Positions 1,878-39,647 of a DNA stretch of 63,109 nt are shown here, piece by piece. Under the pieces are notes generated by a model that saw nothing but the letters and a program-made list of their open reading frames with translations, searched no databases and was not told where the DNA came from. The position numbers and the translations under genes were made by a program. The stretch's first letter is position 1, and each line of letters begins with the position of its first letter. Source of the stretch: Thermoplasmatota archaeon (GTDB lineage: Archaea; Thermoplasmatota; Thermoplasmata; Halarchaeoplasmatales; Halarchaeoplasmataceae); contig JBNJDY010000003.1 in NCBI GenBank assembly GCA_051745305.1, forward strand, positions 1-63,109. The letters are read 5' to 3'.

Positions 1878-2273
1878 ATGCATCCAATAGAACCTTTGTT
1901 ACTAGGTGTTCTAGCTATTGTAATACATGAAATCTTTCACTACCTACCTCACGTATTTATGAAAACAAAATTTAAGAGATTCATAGTATCTACAAAATCT
2001 ATTGGATTCCAGTTCTCTAATGATTTTATGAGGGATAAAAAGAAGATGATTTTAGTCAATCTATTACCTTTATCTCTTTCGTCGATCTTGTTTTTAGACC
2101 CTTATAATCCAAGGATATTCATATTAGTTGTAGTAAATCTACTATGGAGCATTACAGATATAACCACCATTGCATCGCTAGTAACTAGATCACCTGATGA
2201 AAGAGTGGTTTGGGGTGATACTATGGACCAGAAGGCTAGGGATAAAGCGATTATCGATATCGAATTGGATTGA
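1878..2273 (+). CDS. Small membrane protein with HExxH motif (putative zincin, DUF3267-like)
   Basis: 131-aa ORF with hydrophobic segments and HEIFHYLPH near the N-terminus. Confidence 0.45.
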   Translation: MHPIEPLLLGVLAIVIHEIFHYLPHVFMKTKFKRFIVSTKSIGFQFSNDFMRDKKKMILVNLLPLSLSSILFLDPYNPRIFILVVVNLLWSITDITTIASLVTRSPDERVVWGDTMDQKARDKAIIDIELD

Positions 2274-2603
2274 TCACTGTATATCATCGATCTTTGAAGC
2301 CATGATGAAATCGTTCTCAGATAGTCCTTCGATAGCATGTGTGTAAAGGATTAATTTTACAGTATTCCAAGATATGTAAATATCTGGGTGATGTCCTTCC
2401 TCTTCAGCGATCTCTGCAACTTTGTTTACAAATTCCATCGATTCCTTGAAATTCTTAAAACTGAATACTTTTTTGATCTTATGTATGTCCTTCCTATCGA
2501 TGGTCCAATTATCAACATCTTTTAGATATCTATCTTCCTCAACATCCGGCATTGGAGACTGTCCTCCCTCACAGGGAACGCAGTGTTTTTTTGATAACTC
2601 CAT
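2274..2603 (-). CDS. Pterin-4-alpha-carbinolamine dehydratase (PCD/DCoH family)
   Basis: 109 aa. Has CVPCEGG near the N-terminus and the EEEGHHPDI...W..V.L.L.TH core typical of PCD. Confidence 0.85.
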   Translation of the reverse strand: MELSKKHCVPCEGGQSPMPDVEEDRYLKDVDNWTIDRKDIHKIKKVFSFKNFKESMEFVNKVAEIAEEEGHHPDIYISWNTVKLILYTHAIEGLSENDFIMASKIDDIQ

Positions 2604-2767
2604 TTAGCTTACCCAATAAATGTTATTATCTCAGAGTAATTAAAAGTTATGTTGCTAAATAATGTGTTATGCTCATAATCCATATTGGATCAGATATTAC
2701 ATACCCCAAACTAAAGGAACATAAAAAACAGGTCAGACCCTTTGTACTCTAAACTGTGTTTTTTATA

Positions 2768-3049
2768 TTATGGTTCCAAACTGAGGATTATGGACATAGA
2801 GGAAACATTTACAGTACGGTCATCCTCTTCCTGTTCGATCTCTTCAGTATCCGTTTCGATTCCAGCGATGCTTGCTTCTTTCAGGAACCTATTCTTGGTG
2901 ATCTCGGCCACGTCGACTGCCTTACTGATAGCTCTTCCTCTAGCTTTTATAAAAACCTCGTCAGAACCACTATTGAACTGGTTTACGACAGCCATCACGT
3001 ATGCCATAGTTTCCTTATTTCCGATATACACTGTGTTTTCTTCTGCCAT
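2768..3049 (-). CDS. albA: DNA/RNA-binding protein Alba
   Basis: 93 aa. NTVYIGNK...YVMAVVNQF......[19 protein letters not shown] matches the Alba signature. Confidence 0.9.
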
Positions 3050-3144
3050 ATCTATGTACCTCGCGTATTTGCGGTTTCTTTATTCAAAAGGTCATATTTA
3101 CTATTTTAGTTTGATAAAAAAGAATTCGATTACCAAATGGTTGT

Positions 3145-3564
3145 TCAACCTTCCCTTAGCCAATCTTCAAGTGCTGAAATACCTGTGGGATGACTTATCT
3201 TGATCAAAGCTTTGGCGGTTTCATCCTGGACCCATACCTTGTCCTCTTTTAAAACATCAACAAGATGATCAACCGCTTCTTCAGACCCTATTTCACCTAA
3301 TGCATCGGCAGCACATCCTCTTACAAAGTAGTGTTGATCCCCTAATAATTCGATCAAATGTTCTGCTAATTCGTCTTTCCCAAATTTACCTAAAGATCTA
3401 GCAGCGATACCTCTGACACGCTCATCCTCATCTTCTAAGGCTTTTATCAAAGGGTCAAGTACTTTTTCGTTTTCTATCACTTCAAGTATCTGAACCGCTT
3501 TTCTCCTCACTTTTGGATCGTCATCCTGGAGGTCTTGGATGACTTTTTCGACATATCCCATCAT
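3145..3564 (-). CDS. HEAT-repeat (PBS lyase-like) protein
   Basis: Repeated D..VR..A..AL units (DPKVRRKAVQIL, DERVRGIAARSLG, HYFVRGCAADALG). Confidence 0.75.
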   Translation of the reverse strand: MMGYVEKVIQDLQDDDPKVRRKAVQILEVIENEKVLDPLIKALEDEDERVRGIAARSLGKFGKDELAEHLIELLGDQHYFVRGCAADALGEIGSEEAVDHLVDVLKEDKVWVQDETAKALIKISHPTGISALEDWLREG

Positions 3565-3618
3565 ATCTTTCTCCGCTGTATGTTACCCATTTTGCCCAAA
3601 TAGGCTCACTCCCTTTCC

Positions 3619-3640
3619 AATAACAAAATTTTTTGTTATT
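3619..3640. repeat. Perfect 10-bp inverted repeat with 2-nt spacer (aataacaaaa tt ttttgttatt)
   Basis: Read directly from the sequence. Lies in the 237-nt AT-rich intergenic region upstream of the HEAT-repeat gene. Confidence 0.8.
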
Positions 3641-3801
3641 CTATAAGGTATAGTCCTATTTGTCCTATAAATAATTTACTGATAGAATACAATCCGTTTC
3701 TAATATGTTTTACAGCTATTTGGATAAACCATTTACAAAAAAAATAGATAAATAAATTGAAATTTAAAAAAAAAGGGAGGGAGGGTGATTATCGTGATAT
3801 T

Positions 3802-18925: not shown

Positions 18926-18983
18926 TATGCGATATGATGACCGAAAATGTTTATAGATAAAACTCGATTTCGGAAGGCTGTTT

Positions 18984-20291
18984 ATGGCAAAAAAGGTCAA
19001 AAGTGAAGGCGGTAGCATATTTTGCTCTTACTGTGGAACCGCTGTTCAAGAAGAAGACGATAACTGTCCAAGCTGCGGAGAAGAATTAGAGGATGGATTG
19101 ATAGATGGTGTCCTGTGTCCATCTTGTGGAAATCCAGTTGATCCGATGGAAGATGTCTGTCCAGAGTGCGGAAAAGACTTGACAGATGTAGCAGCTAGCG
19201 CAGACGGTGACGAAGAATTCCTTTCAAAACTATTAGGATGGGGAGATGAAACTGAAGGAAAATTGGAACAAAAGATCGAGGAAAAACGGAAAGCTATGGA
19301 AGTCTTCAAGAAAGTGGCCAATGGTGCTGGAGGTAAGAAAAAAGAAAAAAAAGTAGAAGAGAAGAACGAAGTCGAAACCGATATCTCTTATGATCTTATG
19401 GTTAAACCCTTCCAAGATGTTGTAAATACAGCTGAAAAAAGTTTGGATGAGATAAAGAAAAATATCATGGAAGTTAAAAAAGAGATAGACGACGTCAATG
19501 ATGATGAAGAAAAAGAACGTCTAAAGAATAGATTAGAAGCGCTTAAAAATAGGAAGAATAGATTCCATAGGATGATCGCTAGCATCGAAGAGATGGACAG
19601 AGCGGTAGAACGATTACTAGAGAAACAGAGGAGCGAATTGGAAGAAAAACAGGAGGAGCTAAAAAATAGGATCAAAGAGTTCAAGAAAGTAGTGAAACGG
19701 AAGGATAAAGAGAGAGAAGATATCGAAGAAAAGAAGAGATCATTAGAAAAAAAGGACGAAAAGCTTAAAGAAAAGGAAATGGAACTCAGCGTTTGGGAGG
19801 AAGAACTAAAAAAGAAGGAAGAAAAATTGAAAGGTGAAGTCCATGGTTATAAGGAAAGTGAAGAGGCCTTGGAAAAAATCGAAAAGGGTATACCTGAAGA
19901 AGGTAAAGTAACAAAAGAAGAATGGTTGGCGGAACAGAAAAAAATCCAAAAAGAACTTTTTGATCTAAAAGATATGTGGGGCGAAGACGATGAATTTATC
20001 GACATCACAAATGACTCTATACCAAAAGTAAAGAAGAAGATCAAAGAAAAAGAAGGGGATTGGAAAGATAAGATAAGATCACTTGAAATTGAGTTAGAAA
20101 AAGTTCGTGAAGAAAAGAAAAAACTAGAAAATAAAACCCTGGAGATGGATGTCAAAAGGGAAGAGATCGAAACTATATTGTCAGTTCTAGATGATCTACT
20201 GGGTAACCTTCCTGAAGAAAAAATACGTGAGTTTGCGAAATCAAAACACTTCAAGCTTTATGAGAAGATTATGGATGCTTTTGAACTGTAA
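18984..20291 (+). CDS. Double zinc-ribbon protein with long E/K-rich coiled coil and a short unique C-terminal helix
   Basis: Zinc knuckles CSYCG..x..CPSCG and CPSCG..x..CPECG are followed by a heptad-like E/K/R/L region. C-terminus is LPEEKIREFAKSKHFKLYEKIMDAF. Confidence 0.8.
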   Translation: MAKKVKSEGGSIFCSYCGTAVQEEDDNCPSCGEELEDGLIDGVLCPSCGNPVDPMEDVCPECGKDLTDVAASADGDEEFLSKLLGWGDETEGKLEQKIEEKRKAMEVFKKVANGAGGKKKEKKVEEKNEVETDISYDLMVKPFQDVVNTAEKSLDEIKKNIMEVKKEIDDVNDDEEKERLKNRLEALKNRKNRFHRMIASIEEMDRAVERLLEKQRSELEEKQEELKNRIKEFKKVVKRKDKEREDIEEKKRSLEKKDEKLKEKEMELSVWEEELKKKEEKLKGEVHGYKESEEALEKIEKGIPEEGKVTKEEWLAEQKKIQKELFDLKDMWGEDDEFIDITNDSIPKVKKKIKEKEGDWKDKIRSLEIELEKVREEKKKLENKTLEMDVKREEIETILSVLDDLLGNLPEEKIREFAKSKHFKLYEKIMDAFEL

Positions 20292-20303
20292 GGAGTAATA
20301 GAT

Positions 20304-23300
20304 ATGGGCCTAAGAGAAAAAGCGAAAAAAGCTCTTGAAGAAGAAGAAAAAACTTCTAAAGAGATCCAAAAGGAGGAAGAAGGAGTCGAAGAACTCGAGA
20401 AAGAGATCGAAGAATTAGAAAATAGAAGATCTGAGCTCATCGAAGAGATCGAAAAACTAGATGTAGAAAAGGAAGAACTTGTATCCAAAAAAGAGGAATT
20501 TGAAAAGGTGAAGGCCCAGATAAAGGAAGCTGTCGAGAAAAGACGAGAATTGGAGAACAATATAGAGAACTTGGAAGATGAATACGAGAGTTTGAAGGAT
20601 AATAGGGAGGAACTAGAAAGACTAACCGAAGAGTATGAGGGGATCCAGGAACAGAAAAAGAGTTTAGAATCTGAGATAGAAGAACTGCGTGAGAATAAAG
20701 AGCAGATAACGGAGGAAAAAGAAGAAGTCGAAGGTGCTAAAAAGCAACTTAATGATGAAATTAAGGAACTTGAGGGAGAAATCGAAGAACTAGAAAAAAG
20801 AAAAGGTGATCTGCTTGAGAGTGAAGGGGAGTTAAAAGAACTTTCAAAAGATGTGGAGGGGTTAGAAGGGAAAAAAGAGGAATTACAATCAGATATCGAA
20901 GAACTCCTTGAAGAGAAAGAAGAACTCGCAGTTTCTAAAGAGGAACTAGAAGAAAAAGCCAAAGAGATCGAAGAGACTGAAAAAGAATTAAAAGAAAGAG
21001 AAGAGAAATTACAGCAGGAGAAAGATGAGTTAGAGGGATTGAGAAGCGAGCTTGAAGAGGAAAAAGAAAGTATCCTTACAAATAGTGAGGAGGTGGAGGA
21101 AAAGAAAAAAGAACTAAAAGAGAAAGAGGAAACTCTGGAACAGAAAGATGAAGAACTACAACAGAAAGAAGAAAACTTAAAAGAGAAAAAAAGTGAAATC
21201 GAAGAGAAAAACTCCGAGCTTGATGAAAGGGGAGATGAACTTAAAACATTGAAAAAAAGTATCGATGGTAAGAAAGGTGCTCTTCAGAGATCTAAAAATC
21301 AATTAGAAGAGAGGAAGGAAGCATTGGAGGAGAGAGAAAAAGAACTAGATCAAAAGGAGAAGTCTTTAAGGGAAGAATTAAAACAGGAACTTTTAGAAGA
21401 TAAAAAGGAGGAGCTAGAGAATCTAGAGAACTCCATCGAAGAAAAAAGAGATGAAAAAGGAGAGTTGGAAGAGGATATCTCGGATTATGAGAAAAGATTA
21501 GAACAGCTTCAGGAAAAAGAGGTTCGTTTAAACAAGAAAGAAGAAGAGCTAGAAGAAAGGGAGGATGAGTTAGAAGAACGGGCTTCACAATTGGATGATA
21601 GAGAAGAAGTAATCGAAGAAAAGGAAGGGAAAATCCAGAGGTCTGAAGAGAAGTTAGCTGAGGTCGAGGAGAGAGAACAGGAATTGGAAGGGTTGGAAAA
21701 AGAGGTTAGTGAAAAAGAAGAAGCACTAAGTGAAAAGGAAGCAGAAATGTCCAATTTGGAAGGAACATTAATAGAGAGAGAGAATCAGATCGATGAGAAA
21801 GAGGATGAAATATCTTCTAAGAAAGAAGAGATAGAAGAACTAGAAGAAACTTTAGAAGAAAGGAAAGGTGAATTGGAAGCTAAAGAGAAAGATATACAAG
21901 AAAAGGATGAAGAGTTACAAGAACGGAAGAGTGAGCTAAAACAGAGAAAGAAAGGATTGGATGAGCGAGAGGAACACCTTGATGAAAAAGAAAAGAATAT
22001 CGGATCCTTAGAGGAGTCGATGGGGGAGAAAAAGAAAGAATTAGAAGAACTCGAAAAAGAGTTGGATGTAAGACGTCAAGATATCATCAGTTCTGAGAAC
22101 AAACTCGATATCAGGGAAGAAGAATTGATAGATTGGGAAGAGGAAGTAGAAGCTAGAGAAGAAAAATTATCTAAGAAAAAATCAGAAGTAGAAGAAAAAG
22201 AAAACTCCATTAAAAAGCGTGAGGAGGAACTGAACGATCTGCAAAAAGAGTTAGAAGAGAGGGAGAATAGATTAGAGGATCTTGAGAGCAATCTAGATGA
22301 AGTTCAAAAAGATCTCGTGGATCGTGAAAAGAAGATAAAGACTAGTGAGAAAGAATTACAGGAGCGGGAAGAAAACATAGAGCATACAGAATCTAATTTA
22401 GATGAACTTAAAAAAGAGCTTCGGACAAAAGAAGAAGACTTGAAAACTAGGGAAGATGAACTGCAAGATCTGAAAAAGGAGTTGAATGATAGAGAGAACG
22501 GTCTCGATACCAGGGAAGAAGCCATCAACGAAAGGGAAGATGAGCAAGATAAACGTGAGAAAAACTTAGATGAAAAGAGGGAAGAACTTGGTGAAAAAGA
22601 GAATCACCTTATAGAGTGGGAAAGTGAACTAGAAACGAGAGAAGAGGAACTGAAAAACTTCGAATCAGAACTCTCTGACAAAGAAGAAAGGTTAGAAGAA
22701 CTAGAAAAAGATCTAAGTGAACGTGATTCTGAGATAAAGGCGAAAGAAGATGAAATCGATGAAAGAGCAAATAAGTTAGATGAGCTGGAAAAAGAACTTG
22801 ACGATCGAAATGAATCACTTGAAAAGAAAGAGGAGAGATTAACATCGAAGGAAAGTCAATTAAAGGAACAGGAAGAGGGCCTTGATAAATTAAGAGACGA
22901 ACTGAAGAAGTGGGAGACCACTCTCGATGAAAAACAGGAAAGGTTGGAAAATGAAAGACAATCTTTCGATGAAAGGGTATCTGAGAAGGAAGAGGAATTG
23001 GCTGAAAAGAGTTCCTCCCTGGATGAAAAAAGAAATATACTTTCAGAGAAAGATGAGCGTTTGAGTGGATTGGAAAAAGAACTTTCTCAGAGAGAGGGAC
23101 GGGTCTCTAAAAAAGAGAAGAATTTGAACGAGTTAAAAGTGAAATTGGAAACGAGGGAAGAAGATATCCTAGATAAAGAAAAGGGACTCGATAAACTTCA
23201 AGAAGAATTAGAAGATTGGAGAGAAGAATTATTTGGTAAGGAAAACCAACTTGAAAAAGAAAGAAATAAACTTAATGAAAAGACTAAGGAGATCCAGGAA

Positions 23301-24362
23301 AAAGAGACACGACTCTGCGAAAGAGAGGATTTGGTAGAGGAAGAATTGGAGAAGGTTGAACAGGAGAGGGATGAACTTTCCGATATGTGGACAAAGATCG
23401 GAGAGAAACTTGAGGAAGTTGAGAACAAAGAAGAGAGGTTAGAAAAACAGCACTCCGAGCTTCAAGTCGAAAAAAGTGATTTGAAACAGAAGAGGATGGA
23501 ACTCGATCAAAGGGAAAGAGGAATAGAAAAGAAGGAGAAAGGACTAAAGGAGAAGGATGAGGAATTAGAGGAGGAAATAGATGAAGTTACACGGGAAATG
23601 GAAAAAGCCCGTTCCTGGAGTCAGACCGCTTTGGATAAAGAAGAGGAGCTAAAATTATGGGAATCCGACCTTAAAGAGTGGGAAGAAAAGTTGGATGATA
23701 GAAGAGAAAAGATCCAAGAAGAGCGAAAAGATATAGAAGAACTCCTTGAAGAATTACCAGAGAGGGTCGAAGAGGTAGAAAATAGGGAGGAAAAACTAAG
23801 TGAACGAGAGCTTGAATTGAAACAGCAAGAATCTAGATTAGAAGAAGTTAAAGATCAATTGGCTAATAAAACGGAAGAACTCGAGGAGGAAAAGAAGCAC
23901 GTCCAGGAAATCAAGGAAAGTGCTATGAACATGATGCAGTACGCCAAATCTAAGAAGGCTAGGGAAGAGAAGAAACGTAGAGAAGAGATACAGCACGAAA
24001 GAGAAAGACTAGAAAGAGAGAGAAAAAAACTTGAGAAAGAGTTGGCCCAGAAAGAGAAGAACCTCGAAAAGAGAGAACAGATGATGGAAAATAAGAAAAA
24101 TAATCTTATGGAAAGAGCTGAAGAGTTGGAAGAAAAGGAAACAGAGCTTCAACAGCAGCGAAATAAGATAAAGAAAGAAAAGAAAGAACTCAATGAAACC
24201 TGGAAGGAAATGGAAGAAGGATCCAAAGAGATGGAAGAGCTGGAAGAACGTGAAAAGAACATCAAAGAGAAGAAGAAAGAACTGGAAGAAAAGGAAGAAA
24301 AATTAGAAAAGAAGAAAAAGAGGATCGACAAGATGAAAAAACACCTTGATGATCTATTGTAA
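20304..24362 (+). CDS. Giant (1352 aa) all-coiled-coil protein with no recognisable globular domain
   Basis: Uninterrupted 4059-nt ORF. GGAG lies 8-11 nt upstream of the ATG, which is 12 nt after the previous stop. The sequence is almost entirely E/K/R/D/L heptad-like repeats. Confidence 0.8.
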   Translation: MGLREKAKKALEEEEKTSKEIQKEEEGVEELEKEIEELENRRSELIEEIEKLDVEKEELVSKKEEFEKVKAQIKEAVEKRRELENNIENLEDEYESLKDNREELERLTEEYEGIQEQKKSLESEIEELRENKEQITEEKEEVEGAKKQLNDEIKELEGEIEELEKRKGDLLESEGELKELSKDVEGLEGKKEELQSDIEELLEEKEELAVSKEELEEKAKEIEETEKELKEREEKLQQEKDELEGLRSELEEEKESILTNSEEVEEKKKELKEKEETLEQKDEELQQKEENLKEKKSEIEEKNSELDERGDELKTLKKSIDGKKGALQRSKNQLEERKEALEEREKELDQKEKSLREELKQELLEDKKEELENLENSIEEKRDEKGELEEDISDYEKRLEQLQEKEVRLNKKEEELEEREDELEERASQLDDREEVIEEKEGKIQRSEEKLAEVEEREQELEGLEKEVSEKEEALSEKEAEMSNLEGTLIERENQIDEKEDEISSKKEEIEELEETLEERKGELEAKEKDIQEKDEELQERKSELKQRKKGLDEREEHLDEKEKNIGSLEESMGEKKKELEELEKELDVRRQDIISSENKLDIREEELIDWEEEVEAREEKLSKKKSEVEEKENSIKKREEELNDLQKELEERENRLEDLESNLDEVQKDLVDREKKIKTSEKELQEREENIEHTESNLDELKKELRTKEEDLKTREDELQDLKKELNDRENGLDTREEAINEREDEQDKREKNLDEKREELGEKENHLIEWESELETREEELKNFESELSDKEERLEELEKDLSERDSEIKAKEDEIDERANKLDELEKELDDRNESLEKKEERLTSKESQLKEQEEGLDKLRDELKKWETTLDEKQERLENERQSFDERVSEKEEELAEKSSSLDEKRNILSEKDERLSGLEKELSQREGRVSKKEKNLNELKVKLETREEDILDKEKGLDKLQEELEDWREELFGKENQLEKERNKLNEKTKEIQEKETRLCEREDLVEEELEKVEQERDELSDMWTKIGEKLEEVENKEERLEKQHSELQVEKSDLKQKRMELDQRERGIEKKEKGLKEKDEELEEEIDEVTREMEKARSWSQTALDKEEELKLWESDLKEWEEKLDDRREKIQEERKDIEELLEELPERVEEVENREEKLSERELELKQQESRLEEVKDQLANKTEELEEEKKHVQEIKESAMNMMQYAKSKKAREEKKRREEIQHERERLERERKKLEKELAQKEKNLEKREQMMENKKNNLMERAEELEEKETELQQQRNKIKKEKKELNETWKEMEEGSKEMEELEEREKNIKEKKKELEEKEEKLEKKKKRIDKMKKHLDDLL

Positions 24363-37877: not shown

Positions 37878-39647
37878 CTACTCAGATAAAACCTTCATCT
37901 CCCTTTCAAGTATGCTGATCTCCCTTTCTTTCAAGGCTGATGGACTAACCGTTATCAAAAAAATTGTATCGGTTTCTGAAACCATATCTACCATATGTCT
38001 TAAGAACTGTATAGTCGCATCGAATCCCGTATGGCTTACTAAATACTCTACACCATCGAGTAGGATCACTTTGCCTTCTTCTATTATCTCTTCTAGTCTG
38101 TAAGTTATACTTTCCAGGTTCGGACGCACCGTCTTTAAGTTTTCACTCTCTCTGCTGGACAACCAAAACATTTCAGCCTCATCCAACGAATATTCTTTTA
38201 CTATTCTATTAGGGTTCACTCTAGAAATTATGTACACTTTATTATCTTTATTAAGTATATCCTCTAGAAGTTTGAAGCCTTTATCTGGACGTTCTTCTTC
38301 TATCATGTAACTTACACCAGGCTGTAATTCATCTGTAATGCCTGACGTAGTTTCTTCCACTTTTTCTTCGGTTAACCCTTGGAAACTCTTCTTTACAGTT
38401 TCTAAAGTCATATCCTGATTCAAAAGAGTCGAGAACGCTAGTAGTCGGTTAATCGCTCCTTCTATTTCCCTAACATTCTTGGTGATGTGGGCTGCTAAAA
38501 AGTCTTTTACATCATCGGGTACCTGAATGTCATGATGCTTAATTTTCTTTTCGATGATCTTCAGTCTTGTTTCATAAGACGGGGGTTCGATCCTAACCAC
38601 TAAGCCCGATTTGAACCGCGAAACCAATCTATCTTTTAAATCTGGTATATCCTCAGGAGGTCTGTCACAGGTCATTATTATCTGTCTACCTTTGCTGTCT
38701 AGATGGTTGAATAGGTAGAATATTATCTCCTGATGTTTCTCCCTACTTGCTAAGAACTGAATATCATCTAATAGTAGGATGTCGGCCTCATAGTATCTTT
38801 TTCTTAAGTCCTCCTGACCTTCTTCCCTTAAACTCGTTATGATTTCAGACGTGCAATTTTCAGTAGATGAATATACGACATTCAATTCTGGACGGTTCTC
38901 TATGATATAGTGACCGATGGCTTTGAGTAGATGAGTTTTACCTAAACCAGCATTACTGGTTAGGACGAGAGGATTGAATGTTCTTCCTTCGGACCGAGCA
39001 GATTCCTTCGATGCTACATATGCCAATTTGTTATTTTCCCCGATCACAAAATTATCGAAAGAGTATTTTTCTGGGAAAGGTGATACGTCTACTGTCTTTC
39101 CTTTCCTTTCCTTGATTATCATATCGTAAACTTCGAGCTCCTTTTCTTCCCTTTCCTTCCTATGGATGTCTTCAGTTATCTCCTTGGATTCGCTTGAAAG
39201 TAATTCATTTTCACTCTCTTCCGATGCTTTTTCCTGAATGCTTTTAGTATCCTCACCCATCTGTTCTAGTAGCTCATCAACTTCTTCAGAACTTTCAGAC
39301 GAAAAGAATGAAGCCCCTTTAGTAACTCTACCCCCTACTTTTTGGATCAGGTCGTCGATATCGACGTTCGTGTGGACCTCCATATATATATTATCAAGCT
39401 CATCCATGCCCATGATCTTTGAAAGGGCTTCATCTCCAGATATCTCCATGCCTGAAGGTGTATAAAGAAGGGCATTCCCTGGGGAGCCATTCTTTAAAGT
39501 AATGTAGCCCTCAAGCTCTTCATCCACGGTTACACGGATATAGCCCTGGAATGAATATTTATTCAGTTTTTCGAGGGTTTTAGAAAGTTTTCCAGGACCG
39601 GTTTTGTCCTGAATCTTCAAACCTTCGGGAAATTTTTTTCTTGACAA
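37878..39647 (-). CDS. Chimeric protein: unknown N-terminal domain, acidic linker, DnaA-type AAA+ domain III, and C-terminal DUF835 domain (no DnaA domain IV)
   Basis: FDNFVIGENNKLAY, Walker A GLGKTHLL, Walker B LLLDDIQF, sensor I IIMTCDRPP, RLVSRF, sensor II NVREIEGAINRL. C-terminus is VYIISRVNP...FWLS...ILLDGVEYLV...FLRHMVD...IFLITVSP (DUF835 pattern). Confidence 0.85.
   Translation of the reverse strand: MSRKKFPEGLKIQDKTGPGKLSKTLEKLNKYSFQGYIRVTVDEELEGYITLKNGSPGNALLYTPSGMEISGDEALSKIMGMDELDNIYMEVHTNVDIDDLIQKVGGRVTKGASFFSSESSEEVDELLEQMGEDTKSIQEKASEESENELLSSESKEITEDIHRKEREEKELEVYDMIIKERKGKTVDVSPFPEKYSFDNFVIGENNKLAYVASKESARSEGRTFNPLVLTSNAGLGKTHLLKAIGHYIIENRPELNVVYSSTENCTSEIITSLREEGQEDLRKRYYEADILLLDDIQFLASREKHQEIIFYLFNHLDSKGRQIIMTCDRPPEDIPDLKDRLVSRFKSGLVVRIEPPSYETRLKIIEKKIKHHDIQVPDDVKDFLAAHITKNVREIEGAINRLLAFSTLLNQDMTLETVKKSFQGLTEEKVEETTSGITDELQPGVSYMIEEERPDKGFKLLEDILNKDNKVYIISRVNPNRIVKEYSLDEAEMFWLSSRESENLKTVRPNLESITYRLEEIIEEGKVILLDGVEYLVSHTGFDATIQFLRHMVDMVSETDTIFLITVSPSALKEREISILEREMKVLSE

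Follow-up and report, generated by a model that had tools for sequence, protein, structure and literature searches.

What might an archaeal cell build from two adjacent genes, one encoding a zinc-ribbon protein and the other a coiled coil of well over a thousand residues in which no enzymatic domain is recognised? This question is raised by a stretch of 63,109 nucleotides (nt) from a Thermoplasmatota archaeon (GenBank assembly GCA_051745305.1, contig JBNJDY010000003.1, positions 1 to 63,109 of the forward strand), hereafter called the window, in which a first open reading frame (ORF1) is followed closely by a much longer one (the giant). An earlier reading of the same DNA, hereafter the original prediction, had singled out the two genes as a candidate filament or scaffold pair. 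The analysis described here suggests that their products dock into a complex of adaptor and rod, one version of a widespread plug-and-socket cassette in which the last residues of ORF1 would form a socket for the first residues of the giant; we give this reading, docking and cellular role included, about an even chance of being right.

A C-terminal module linked to the next gene

The original prediction could name no described family for the pair, and this has changed for the C-terminal helix of ORF1. The last 43 residues of this protein correspond to the TP_0179 module (Pfam PF27359), with the pattern L..VLD.LL..LP...I..F..S..F..Y. The assignment goes through homologues with 26-53% identity and precomputed PF27359 matches, and the ORF1 module aligns with them at all invariant positions (L, V, L, D, L, L, L, P, F, S and Y). 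PF27359 is named after the Treponema pallidum hypothetical protein TP0179 and is a family without assigned function; the literature on TP0179 speaks of a "hypothetical protein" throughout, and nothing useful was found there on SpiroCoCo, on PF27359 or on the function of TP0179, TP0180 and TP0178.

A profile of the module built from the ORF1 family finds 2,639 clusters at 50% identity in an exhaustive search, with 880 at E <= 1e-10; a word-index homology search with the 43-residue alignment returned five fragments only. The module stands nearly always at the extreme C-terminus, as it does in ORF1, and it is found on proteins with coiled coils, on acidic and disordered repeat proteins from Leptospiraceae and on proteins anchored by transmembrane helices. 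Bacterial members carry acidic disordered repeats or transmembrane anchors, whereas in ORF1 the module is combined with a zinc ribbon and a coiled coil. Some of the bacterial socket proteins deserve a description of their own. Those of Leptospiraceae and related organisms (P0117, P0145 and P0062) are extremely acidic and probably disordered, and five to eight copies of DDDEPIALSxEELDxIL precede the module in them. Four others (P0016, P0021, P0036 and P0041) have one or two N-terminal transmembrane helices and two tandem modules, and would be membrane-anchored double sockets.

On the other side of the junction, MGLR[ED][KR]A[KR]K stands at the N-terminus of all giant orthologues, and peptides of this kind also follow TP_0179 modules in unrelated proteins. 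Three such proteins were checked, one a coiled coil of 936 residues, one from Turneriella and the third likewise bacterial, and their next genes start with MGLLEEARKK, MGLRERAS or MGLRDKAS and have bodies that are disordered and coiled-coil or GAF/GGDEF-like. A cassette was defined as a module gene and a gene with the start MGL[RL][DE][KR]A that comes next on that strand at a distance of about -30 to +200 nt; the window pair, with its 12-nt gap and its start MGLREKAKK, falls within this definition.

Metagenomes were scanned with a hand-made, 43-bit degenerate DNA pattern for the module, which matches once in the window (20178-20261) and in 21 of 22 loci, with 0 matches expected by chance. The scan yielded at least 120 stretches with 117 assessable cases, and 2,060 ORFs of the same loci served as controls. 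Among the matches listed, to which all counts of this paragraph refer, the strict start MGL[RL][DE][KR]A is present in 65 of 117 next genes against 0 of 2,060 control ORFs, and a relaxed MGL[RLF]xKA-type start (including MGLF.RA and MSLLEKA) in 104 of 117 against 18 of 2,060. The median gap between the two genes is 2 nt, 33 gene pairs overlap, and the loci range in GC content from 0.22 to 0.72. When the upstream protein has a zinc ribbon and a usable partner, the partner is heptad-rich in every case (17/17) and reaches 1753 residues; most partners of upstream proteins that have no zinc ribbon are globular, with GAF and with or without GGDEF. The bodies of both cassette proteins vary completely, and what stays is the junction of module and peptide, in which position 4 of the peptide co-varies with the module subtype (R/V against L/Y).

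Read from genome sequence, these counts establish a cross-domain rule by which a C-terminal TP_0179 module is linked to the N-terminal MGL[RLF]xKA peptide of the next gene, and no literature description of such a pairing was found. An origin by gene fission, which predicts fused module-plug polypeptides, was rejected, given that none was seen among the module proteins and that internal modules are tandem module duplications. In locus L129 the cassette is extended to a three-gene chain, where a socket protein is followed by a 250-residue protein with both a plug (MGLRDKAKEKLA) and a TP_0179 socket, and this one by a plug-bearing coiled coil of 860 residues that starts with MGLREKARAKLE. The partners in L053 and L142 likewise end in a TP_0179-like sequence (...YEKLFKKLGV), and together the three loci suggest that such proteins may be chained head to tail.

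Two variants of the cassette were noted in passing. In L021 (96-5206), a bacterial, spirochaete-like contig, the cassette has fliS upstream and a FapA-domain gene downstream, and its plug protein has the architecture GAF-GAF-(degenerate) GGDEF, related to the N-terminal part of DgcA. In L082, L107, L113, L125, L138 and L139, the module belongs to a subtype ending in ...YKRLFDDLGLL, and the next ORF, which starts with MGLL[ED]KA, overlaps it by 1 nt and has only 30-48 codons; these short ORFs may be mini-proteins, decayed partners or frameshifts.

The operon and its conservation

The two genes were originally described as co-directional ORFs with a 12-nt gap and a GGAG ahead of the second ATG, and coordinates, strand and lengths proved exact (Table 1). 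ORF1 ends with TAA at 20289-20291, the giant begins with ATG at 20304, and the spacer between them reads GGAGTAATAGAT. The TATA box of the candidate promoter ends 26 nt from the ORF1 ATG, and the transcript is therefore expected to be leaderless or near-leaderless. The sequence cGAAAAnGTTTATA, which covers the B-recognition element (BRE) and the TATA box, lies at an identical distance from the ORF1 ATG in 10 of the 12 loci compared. In most of these loci the giant is preceded by GGAG or GAGG, and the two genes are 8-18 nt apart. The genes around the pair in the window are housekeeping ones (isoprenoid, purine and glycine-cleavage). The pair forms a bicistronic operon of its own, with a predicted archaeal promoter, a putatively leaderless first gene and a second gene preceded by a Shine-Dalgarno sequence.

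Absence of the pair in close relatives had been named as a finding that would speak against a two-gene system. An ORF1 homologue and, 1-18 nt beyond its end, an ORF with the start MGLR were found in 15 of 15 independent loci, the downstream ORF having 1289-1652 residues in this set where the contig allows, and the flanking genes differ between lineages. With the promoter and Shine-Dalgarno elements conserved as well, the two genes can be regarded as a real pair. The nearest relatives are uncultured Thermoplasmata metagenome-assembled genomes from hypersaline and soda-lake environments, among them Candidatus Saliniplasma and bins from soda-lake sediment, and a locus of the L023 type looks haloarchaeal. 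In two archaeal lineages of higher GC content (L036:11827-13026 and L084:1741-2952) the pair adjoins a gene for an archaeal-type S-adenosylmethionine synthetase (PF01941), which may be due to coincidence or to local synteny. Another locus, L016, has a divergent zinc-ribbon/MGLR pair back-to-back with a ribbon-helix-helix (RHH) gene and ftsZ (316-1664 on the minus strand next to 1980-3758 on the plus strand); its MGLR ORF is broken after 235 residues and coiled-coil coding continues beyond, so that a frameshift or an assembly error is likely.

A rod counted in heptads

The giant had been taken for an extended coiled coil, and the periodicity of its sequence bears this out. Glu makes up 31% of its residues, Lys 16% and Leu 12%, Pro and Cys occur once each, and its hydrophobic residues recur most strongly with periods of 3.5 and 7. 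The Viterbi score for a heptad register is 421, against 118 +/- 11 for shuffled sequences, which amounts to 28 standard deviations. The register is broken 12 times in 1352 residues, the longest unbroken run covers 437 residues (454-891), and heptad position a is 75% Leu, Ile or Val.

The comparison between species points in the same direction. When lengths were compared between conserved anchor residues in seven clade orthologues (37-65% identity), 10 of the 11 non-zero differences were exact multiples of 7 (-7, -14, -21, -28 and -63), or 8 of 9 once shared events were merged (binomial about 1e-6). Between W972 and W1300 there are no insertions or deletions in any clade member, and the distance of 271 residues from W1029 to W1300 is the same even in L003, at 27% identity. 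Since length changes come in heptads and other distances are fixed, both the register and the length of the rod are under selection. The giant is a heptad coiled coil with hardly any interruption, and the differences in its length between species come as whole heptads only; the earlier figure of about 200 nm is arithmetically right for a fully extended rod (0.1485 nm per residue).

The proposal that a Trp-containing unit shared by both proteins marks one repeat family expanded by internal duplication did not survive. The unit L..W[ERK]..[LIVF]...[EQ]..L occurs five times in the giant against 1.2 expected (1 of 1000 heptad-preserving shuffles reached five), with its Trp at heptad position d; apart from the heptad itself no period is prominent (maximum z 2.9), and ORF1 aligns about equally well with the four quarters of the giant (hhalign scores 52, 55, 51 and 48). 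The unit reads as a generic heptad consensus with Trp at d, of which the Trp sites themselves are kept across species. Two related ideas were rejected on the same figures: paralogy between ORF1 and the tail of the giant (LKDMW/LSDMW, VLDDLL/HLDDLL), for which the hhalign scores reflect generic coiled-coil similarity, and a higher-order or spectrin-like repeat of about 100 residues, for which no lag exceeds z 2.9.

Nor is the giant the same kind of sequence from its first residue to its last, as had been stated. In an alignment of nine complete giants, including the distant ones of L003 and L005, conserved non-heptad islands appear. One of them, at residues 318-334, is specific to the clade and has the consensus KSIDGKKGALQRSKN. 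Others belong to the fixed-length C-terminal region, where the Trp columns are kept in 7/9 (W972), 8/9 (W1029), 7/9 (W1105) and 9/9 giants (W1300), and where LPxR holds the sole proline of the protein. The best-conserved island, at residues 1199-1222, has the consensus VxEIKESAxNxMxYAKSKKAREEKK, with KESAxNxMxYAK as its loop part. A single-sequence AlphaFold2 model of residues 1000-1352, with a mean predicted local distance difference test (pLDDT) score of 86 and a predicted template modelling score of 0.23, has helices at 1001-1204 and 1216-1351 and a pLDDT below 50 at 1205-1213. The predicted helix break at 1205-1215, the only one in the last 352 residues, is the conserved ESAMNMMQYAK. Beyond it, the last helix (1223-1352) is charge-neutral (net +2) compared with -18 per 100 residues for the rod. 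A word-index search with the C-terminal 352 residues found no homologues, low-complexity candidates swamping the search. In the giants of L003, L005, L017 and L018, a Pro/Glu-rich linker at residues 12-130 or so lies between MGLRDKAKK and the coiled coil; it is probably disordered, as expected of a tethered short linear motif.

The zinc-ribbon protein

The eight Cys residues of ORF1 form four CxxC motifs (C14/17, C28/31, C45/48 and C59/62), in agreement with the two CxxC...CxxC knuckle pairs that had been recognised at its start. Both Pfam profiles that match exceed their cut-offs, with 37.4 bits (cut-off 27.3; E 2.9e-9) for PF12773 DZR and 41.9 bits (cut-off 27; E 5.8e-11) for PF13248 Zn_ribbon_3, and ORF1 can be placed among double zinc-ribbon proteins, with a predicted metal site. 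In the family alignment the second CxxC pair (C45, C48, C59 and C62) is invariant. The zinc-ribbon head has a net charge of -11, against -5 to +2 in relatives, and nucleic-acid binding by this head is disfavoured on account of these charges.

Behind the ribbons, the spacing C62-W86-K110 is fixed among homologues. Two helical modules have fixed lengths (204-332 and 360-435), the linkers between modules varying in length, and the inter-anchor distances of the first (29, 38, 43 and 18 residues) are the same in nearly all clade members, except for two loci that are one residue off in one interval. In the AlphaFold2 model (mean pLDDT 75, about 90 or more over residues 150-290) helices are predicted at 67-112, 123-170, 174-302, 311-331, 346-407, 411-418 and 421-432. 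A PDB sequence search and a Foldseek search of PDB with this model gave generic helices only (E > 0.06).

PspA, Vipp1 and ESCRT-III proteins carry an N-terminal helix of the MGLFDR type. Membership in this family was rejected for lack of a PspA_IM30 or Snf7 profile match in either ORF1 or the giant, and Foldseek matches of Vipp1 and CHMP4B had E > 1. A membrane-anchoring amphipathic helix, be it the N-terminus of the giant or the EFLSKLLGW motif of ORF1, is also unsupported, with a hydrophobic moment about the protein average and no transmembrane segment.

A proposed docked complex and the readings that compete with it

How could these parts work together? In the proposed complex, the acidic TP_0179 module of ORF1 (net charge -5) would bind the basic N-terminal peptide of the giant, which has four basic residues and is complementary to it in charge, perhaps while this N-terminus emerges from the ribosome on the same mRNA. 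ORF1 would then cap or anchor an in-register rod, about 180-200 nm long, at one of its ends, and the ORF1 zinc ribbons would attach the complex to a cellular site; because the ribbons are acidic, a protein partner is likelier there than nucleic acid. The conserved, fixed-length C-terminal region of the giant may be the other functional end, and the whole would serve as a cytoplasmic strut, tether or ruler and not as an enzyme. A role as adaptor is plausible for ORF1, which the original prediction had proposed as an anchor or nucleator.

Several observations weigh against this proposal. Position d of the heptads is 31% Leu, about 40% hydrophobic and 43% Lys/Arg, which leaves a thin seam, and the net charge of -202 may make the coiled coil weak unless salt is high. 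If the last 136 residues folded back at the loop, as they might, the rod would be shorter. Among the matches listed, about 11% of the cassettes have no recognisable plug, and the co-variation of peptide position 4 with the module subtype is confounded by shared ancestry. Finally, in a few loci 1-4 residues precede the motif, so that a free N-terminus is possibly not required.

Another arrangement, close to the filament or scaffold of the original prediction, would resemble intermediate filaments, as do crescentin, FilP/Scy or CCRPs: giants would associate side by side into filaments or a lattice, with ORF1 as nucleator or anchor. Long continuous heptads, a conserved length and the lack of enzymatic domains suit such a cytoskeleton, and prokaryotic coiled coils of more than 400 residues are rare except for SMC-type proteins (PMC1322226). 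However, a charge of -18 per 100 residues along the rod disfavours lateral packing unless counter-ions or partners intervene, and the giant shows neither a head-rod-tail layout with a conserved stutter nor a Scy-type 51-residue repeat or other higher-order repeat (no lag above z 2.9). Its conserved features are terminal docking elements, which fit a tether at least equally well. Because of the extreme charge and these terminal elements, a strut, tether or ruler is favoured over a laterally packed filament, which we consider unlikely.

A division scaffold, with the zinc ribbons of ORF1 binding FtsZ or another divisome protein and the rod spanning or organising the division site, is brought to mind by gene neighbourhoods. 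The pair of L016 lies next to the RHH gene and ftsZ, a layout that we take to resemble the cdrS-ftsZ2 arrangement, and in L003 and L004 sepF is found 5 kb from the pair. In haloarchaea the zinc ribbons of CdpC bind FtsZ1, and remote multi-zinc-ribbon relatives are reported from Thermoplasmatota (preprint 10.64898/2026.07.16.738847), which offers an analogy and not a family relationship. Nevertheless, neither ftsZ nor sepF occurs within 10 kb of the pair in the other loci or anywhere in the 63-kb window. CdpC is a membrane anchor of FtsZ1, marked by an amphipathic membrane helix at the N-terminus and an FtsZ-binding zinc ribbon at the C-terminus. ORF1 has no match to DUF7093, the CdpC family, at E <= 0.01; both of its ribbons are N-terminal, and its conserved motifs, the post-ribbon one included, have an average hydrophobic moment and are not markedly amphipathic. 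A role in division is thus quite improbable.

The charge itself could be the function, with the giant as a polyanionic rod that serves as cation reservoir, nucleic-acid mimic or crowding agent at high salt, and ORF1 as its chaperone or cap. The giant has -15 charges per 100 residues against -4 for 26 ordinary window proteins, and its relatives live in hypersaline and soda-lake settings. Yet insertions and deletions quantised in heptads, a C-terminal region of fixed length and the conservation of Trp, Pro and loop positions indicate a precise geometry, and coiled-coil giants with a lower Glu content are also found in lineages with a GC content of 0.55-0.72, all of which makes a mere polyanion very improbable.

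Profile searches of the giant bring up a chromosome organiser or defence component (JetC or LmuB type) of the SMC, Rad50 or MukB kind that has lost its heads. NCBIfam and PADLOC models for SMC, ASRP, Rad50, JetC and LmuB match with E down to 1e-46, strong matches that come from heptad-rich arms. All of them, however, fall in the coiled-coil arm of the model and far under the cut-offs (159 versus 567 bits for SMC); in Pfam the giant matches RNase_Y_N only, for compositional reasons. The heads, hinge or zinc hook and midpoint fold-back of SMC, Rad50, ASRP and MukB-JetC proteins have no counterpart in the giant, which lacks Walker A (G....GK[ST]), Walker B (hhhhD[DE]) and LSGG motifs and any segment resembling a transmembrane helix, and whose heptads run unbroken across the midpoint (454-891) with a single Cys and a single Pro. 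The neighbourhood consists of housekeeping genes and is not a defence island. Because ATPase head and hinge are missing, the giant is not an SMC or Rad50 protein; the original prediction had already excluded SMC, Rad50 and MukB, and the cryptic SMC-like head that it named as an example of a refuting result is not found above curated cut-offs, which leaves this relationship hardly credible. An assembly artefact or a spurious low-complexity ORF, a concern raised by the purine-rich strand (GC skew +0.49, AT skew +0.48), has a negligible probability, given a frame of 1289-1753 codons that stays open in no fewer than 20 independent assemblies (27-65% identity) and whose termini, promoter and Shine-Dalgarno sequence are conserved. 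Tandem Repeats Finder detects short, poor repeats only, and the lack of high-identity tandem repeats makes a repeat-collapse misassembly unlikely.

Relation to known systems

Very long, non-enzymatic, cytoplasmic coiled-coil proteins are known in bacteria, such as crescentin, FilP, Scy (1326 residues), other coiled-coil-rich proteins (CCRPs) and HMW2 of Mycoplasma. The giant is likewise long, coiled-coil and non-enzymatic, with a size near that of Scy. It has no sequence relationship with these scaffolds, it is built of canonical heptads and not of the 51-residue repeat of Scy, and it differs from them in its extreme negative charge and in an obligate operon partner with a putative docking module.

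The logic of a small terminal element by which an extended protein recruits another one is also familiar. The C-terminal peptide of CdvA docks on the winged helix of CdvB, and that of FtsZ docks on SepF, FtsA and ZipA. Zinc ribbons as protein-binding heads in archaeal cell biology are exemplified by CdpC with FtsZ1 (preprint 10.64898/2026.07.16.738847). The elements of these systems are unrelated to those of the cassette, in which a C-terminal socket of gene 1 and an N-terminal plug of gene 2 are encoded in one operon and occur in both prokaryotic domains.

LuxA and LuxB are the paradigm for co-translational assembly of neighbours encoded in one operon. Similarly, the genes of the cassette are translationally coupled, and what they conserve is the end of protein 1, which is made last, and the start of protein 2, which is made first; by analogy we infer that its products might assemble co-translationally.

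Features of the pair and its surroundings

The positions of the elements discussed above are collected in Table 1. Elsewhere in the window, an ORF of 589 residues (37878-39647, minus strand) combines a Bac_DnaA ATPase domain (E 7e-55) with a C-terminal DUF835; this bacterial-type DnaA with DUF835 is an unusual architecture and stands in an otherwise archaeal chromosome segment.

Table 1. Elements of the ORF1-giant pair, with positions in the window
Feature	Positions	Strand	Description	Basis
Candidate archaeal promoter	18941..18957	+	BRE-like cCGAAAA at 18941-18947; TATA box TTTATAGA at 18950-18957	Sequence and conservation
ORF1	18984..20291	+	435 residues; zinc-ribbon/coiled-coil protein with TP_0179 module at the C-terminus	
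Double zinc ribbon	19023..19169	+	Residues 14-62; four CxxC	Pfam DZR and Zn_ribbon_3
Post-ribbon motif	19209..19250	+	DEEFLSKLLGWGDE; residues 76-89; D76, L83 and W86 invariant	Family alignment
Helical core of rigid length	19593..19979	+	Residues 204-332	Inter-anchor distances
TP_0179 module (PF27359), putative socket	20160..20288	+	EEIETILSVLDDLLGNLPEEKIREFAKSKHFKLYEKIMDAFEL	PF27359 matches of homologues and invariant residues
Shine-Dalgarno sequence	20292..20295	+	GGAG, 8 nt 5' of the giant ATG, within the intergenic spacer	
Giant	20304..24362	+	1352 residues; predicted coiled-coil rod; net charge -202	
N-terminal peptide, putative plug	20304..20330	+	MGLREKAKK	Orthologue conservation and cassette counts
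Clade-specific island	21255..21305	+	KKSIDGKKGALQRSKNQ; residues 318-334; Gly-containing heptad break	Nine-giant alignment and register breaks
Fixed-length C-terminal region	23217..24359	+	Residues 972-1352; W972, W1029, W1105, LPxR (P1152) and W1300	Anchor distances
Best-conserved island	23898..23969	+	VQEIKESAMNMMQYAKSKKAREEK; residues 1199-1222	Kept in 9/9 giants
C-terminal end	24342..24359	+	HLDDLL-COOH	Kept among giants

Significance

Prokaryotes have few long coiled coils outside the SMC type, and these are poorly understood; little is known, too, of how the archaeal cytoskeleton is organised beyond the tubulin, actin and ESCRT families. The locus described here is a defined two-protein system whose sharp features lend themselves to testing, namely a plug of 11 residues, a socket of 43, a rod quantised in heptads and one conserved loop. 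A long structural coiled coil with an adaptor is in itself an already known sort of system, and the plug-and-socket cassette may come to deserve a separate category when binding has been demonstrated.

We consider it about equally likely to be right or wrong that TP_0179 modules and N-terminal GL[RLF]xKA peptides form an undescribed cross-domain docking system, encoded where two translationally coupled genes meet and perhaps engaged co-translationally, which is reused for different cargo and anchors and in archaea builds struts or rulers about 200 nm long and quantised in heptads. If so, the cargo would comprise GAF/GGDEF signalling proteins in bacteria and coiled-coil rods of 1000-1750 residues in archaea, the anchors would be zinc ribbons, transmembrane helices and acidic repeat proteins, and the archaeal struts or rulers would represent a new class of cytoskeletal element. 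A natural, compact peptide-domain docking pair could also be gained from it. As the junction is present in thousands of bacterial and archaeal protein clusters, those of spirochaetes included, a single solution would annotate many gene pairs that are now called hypothetical.

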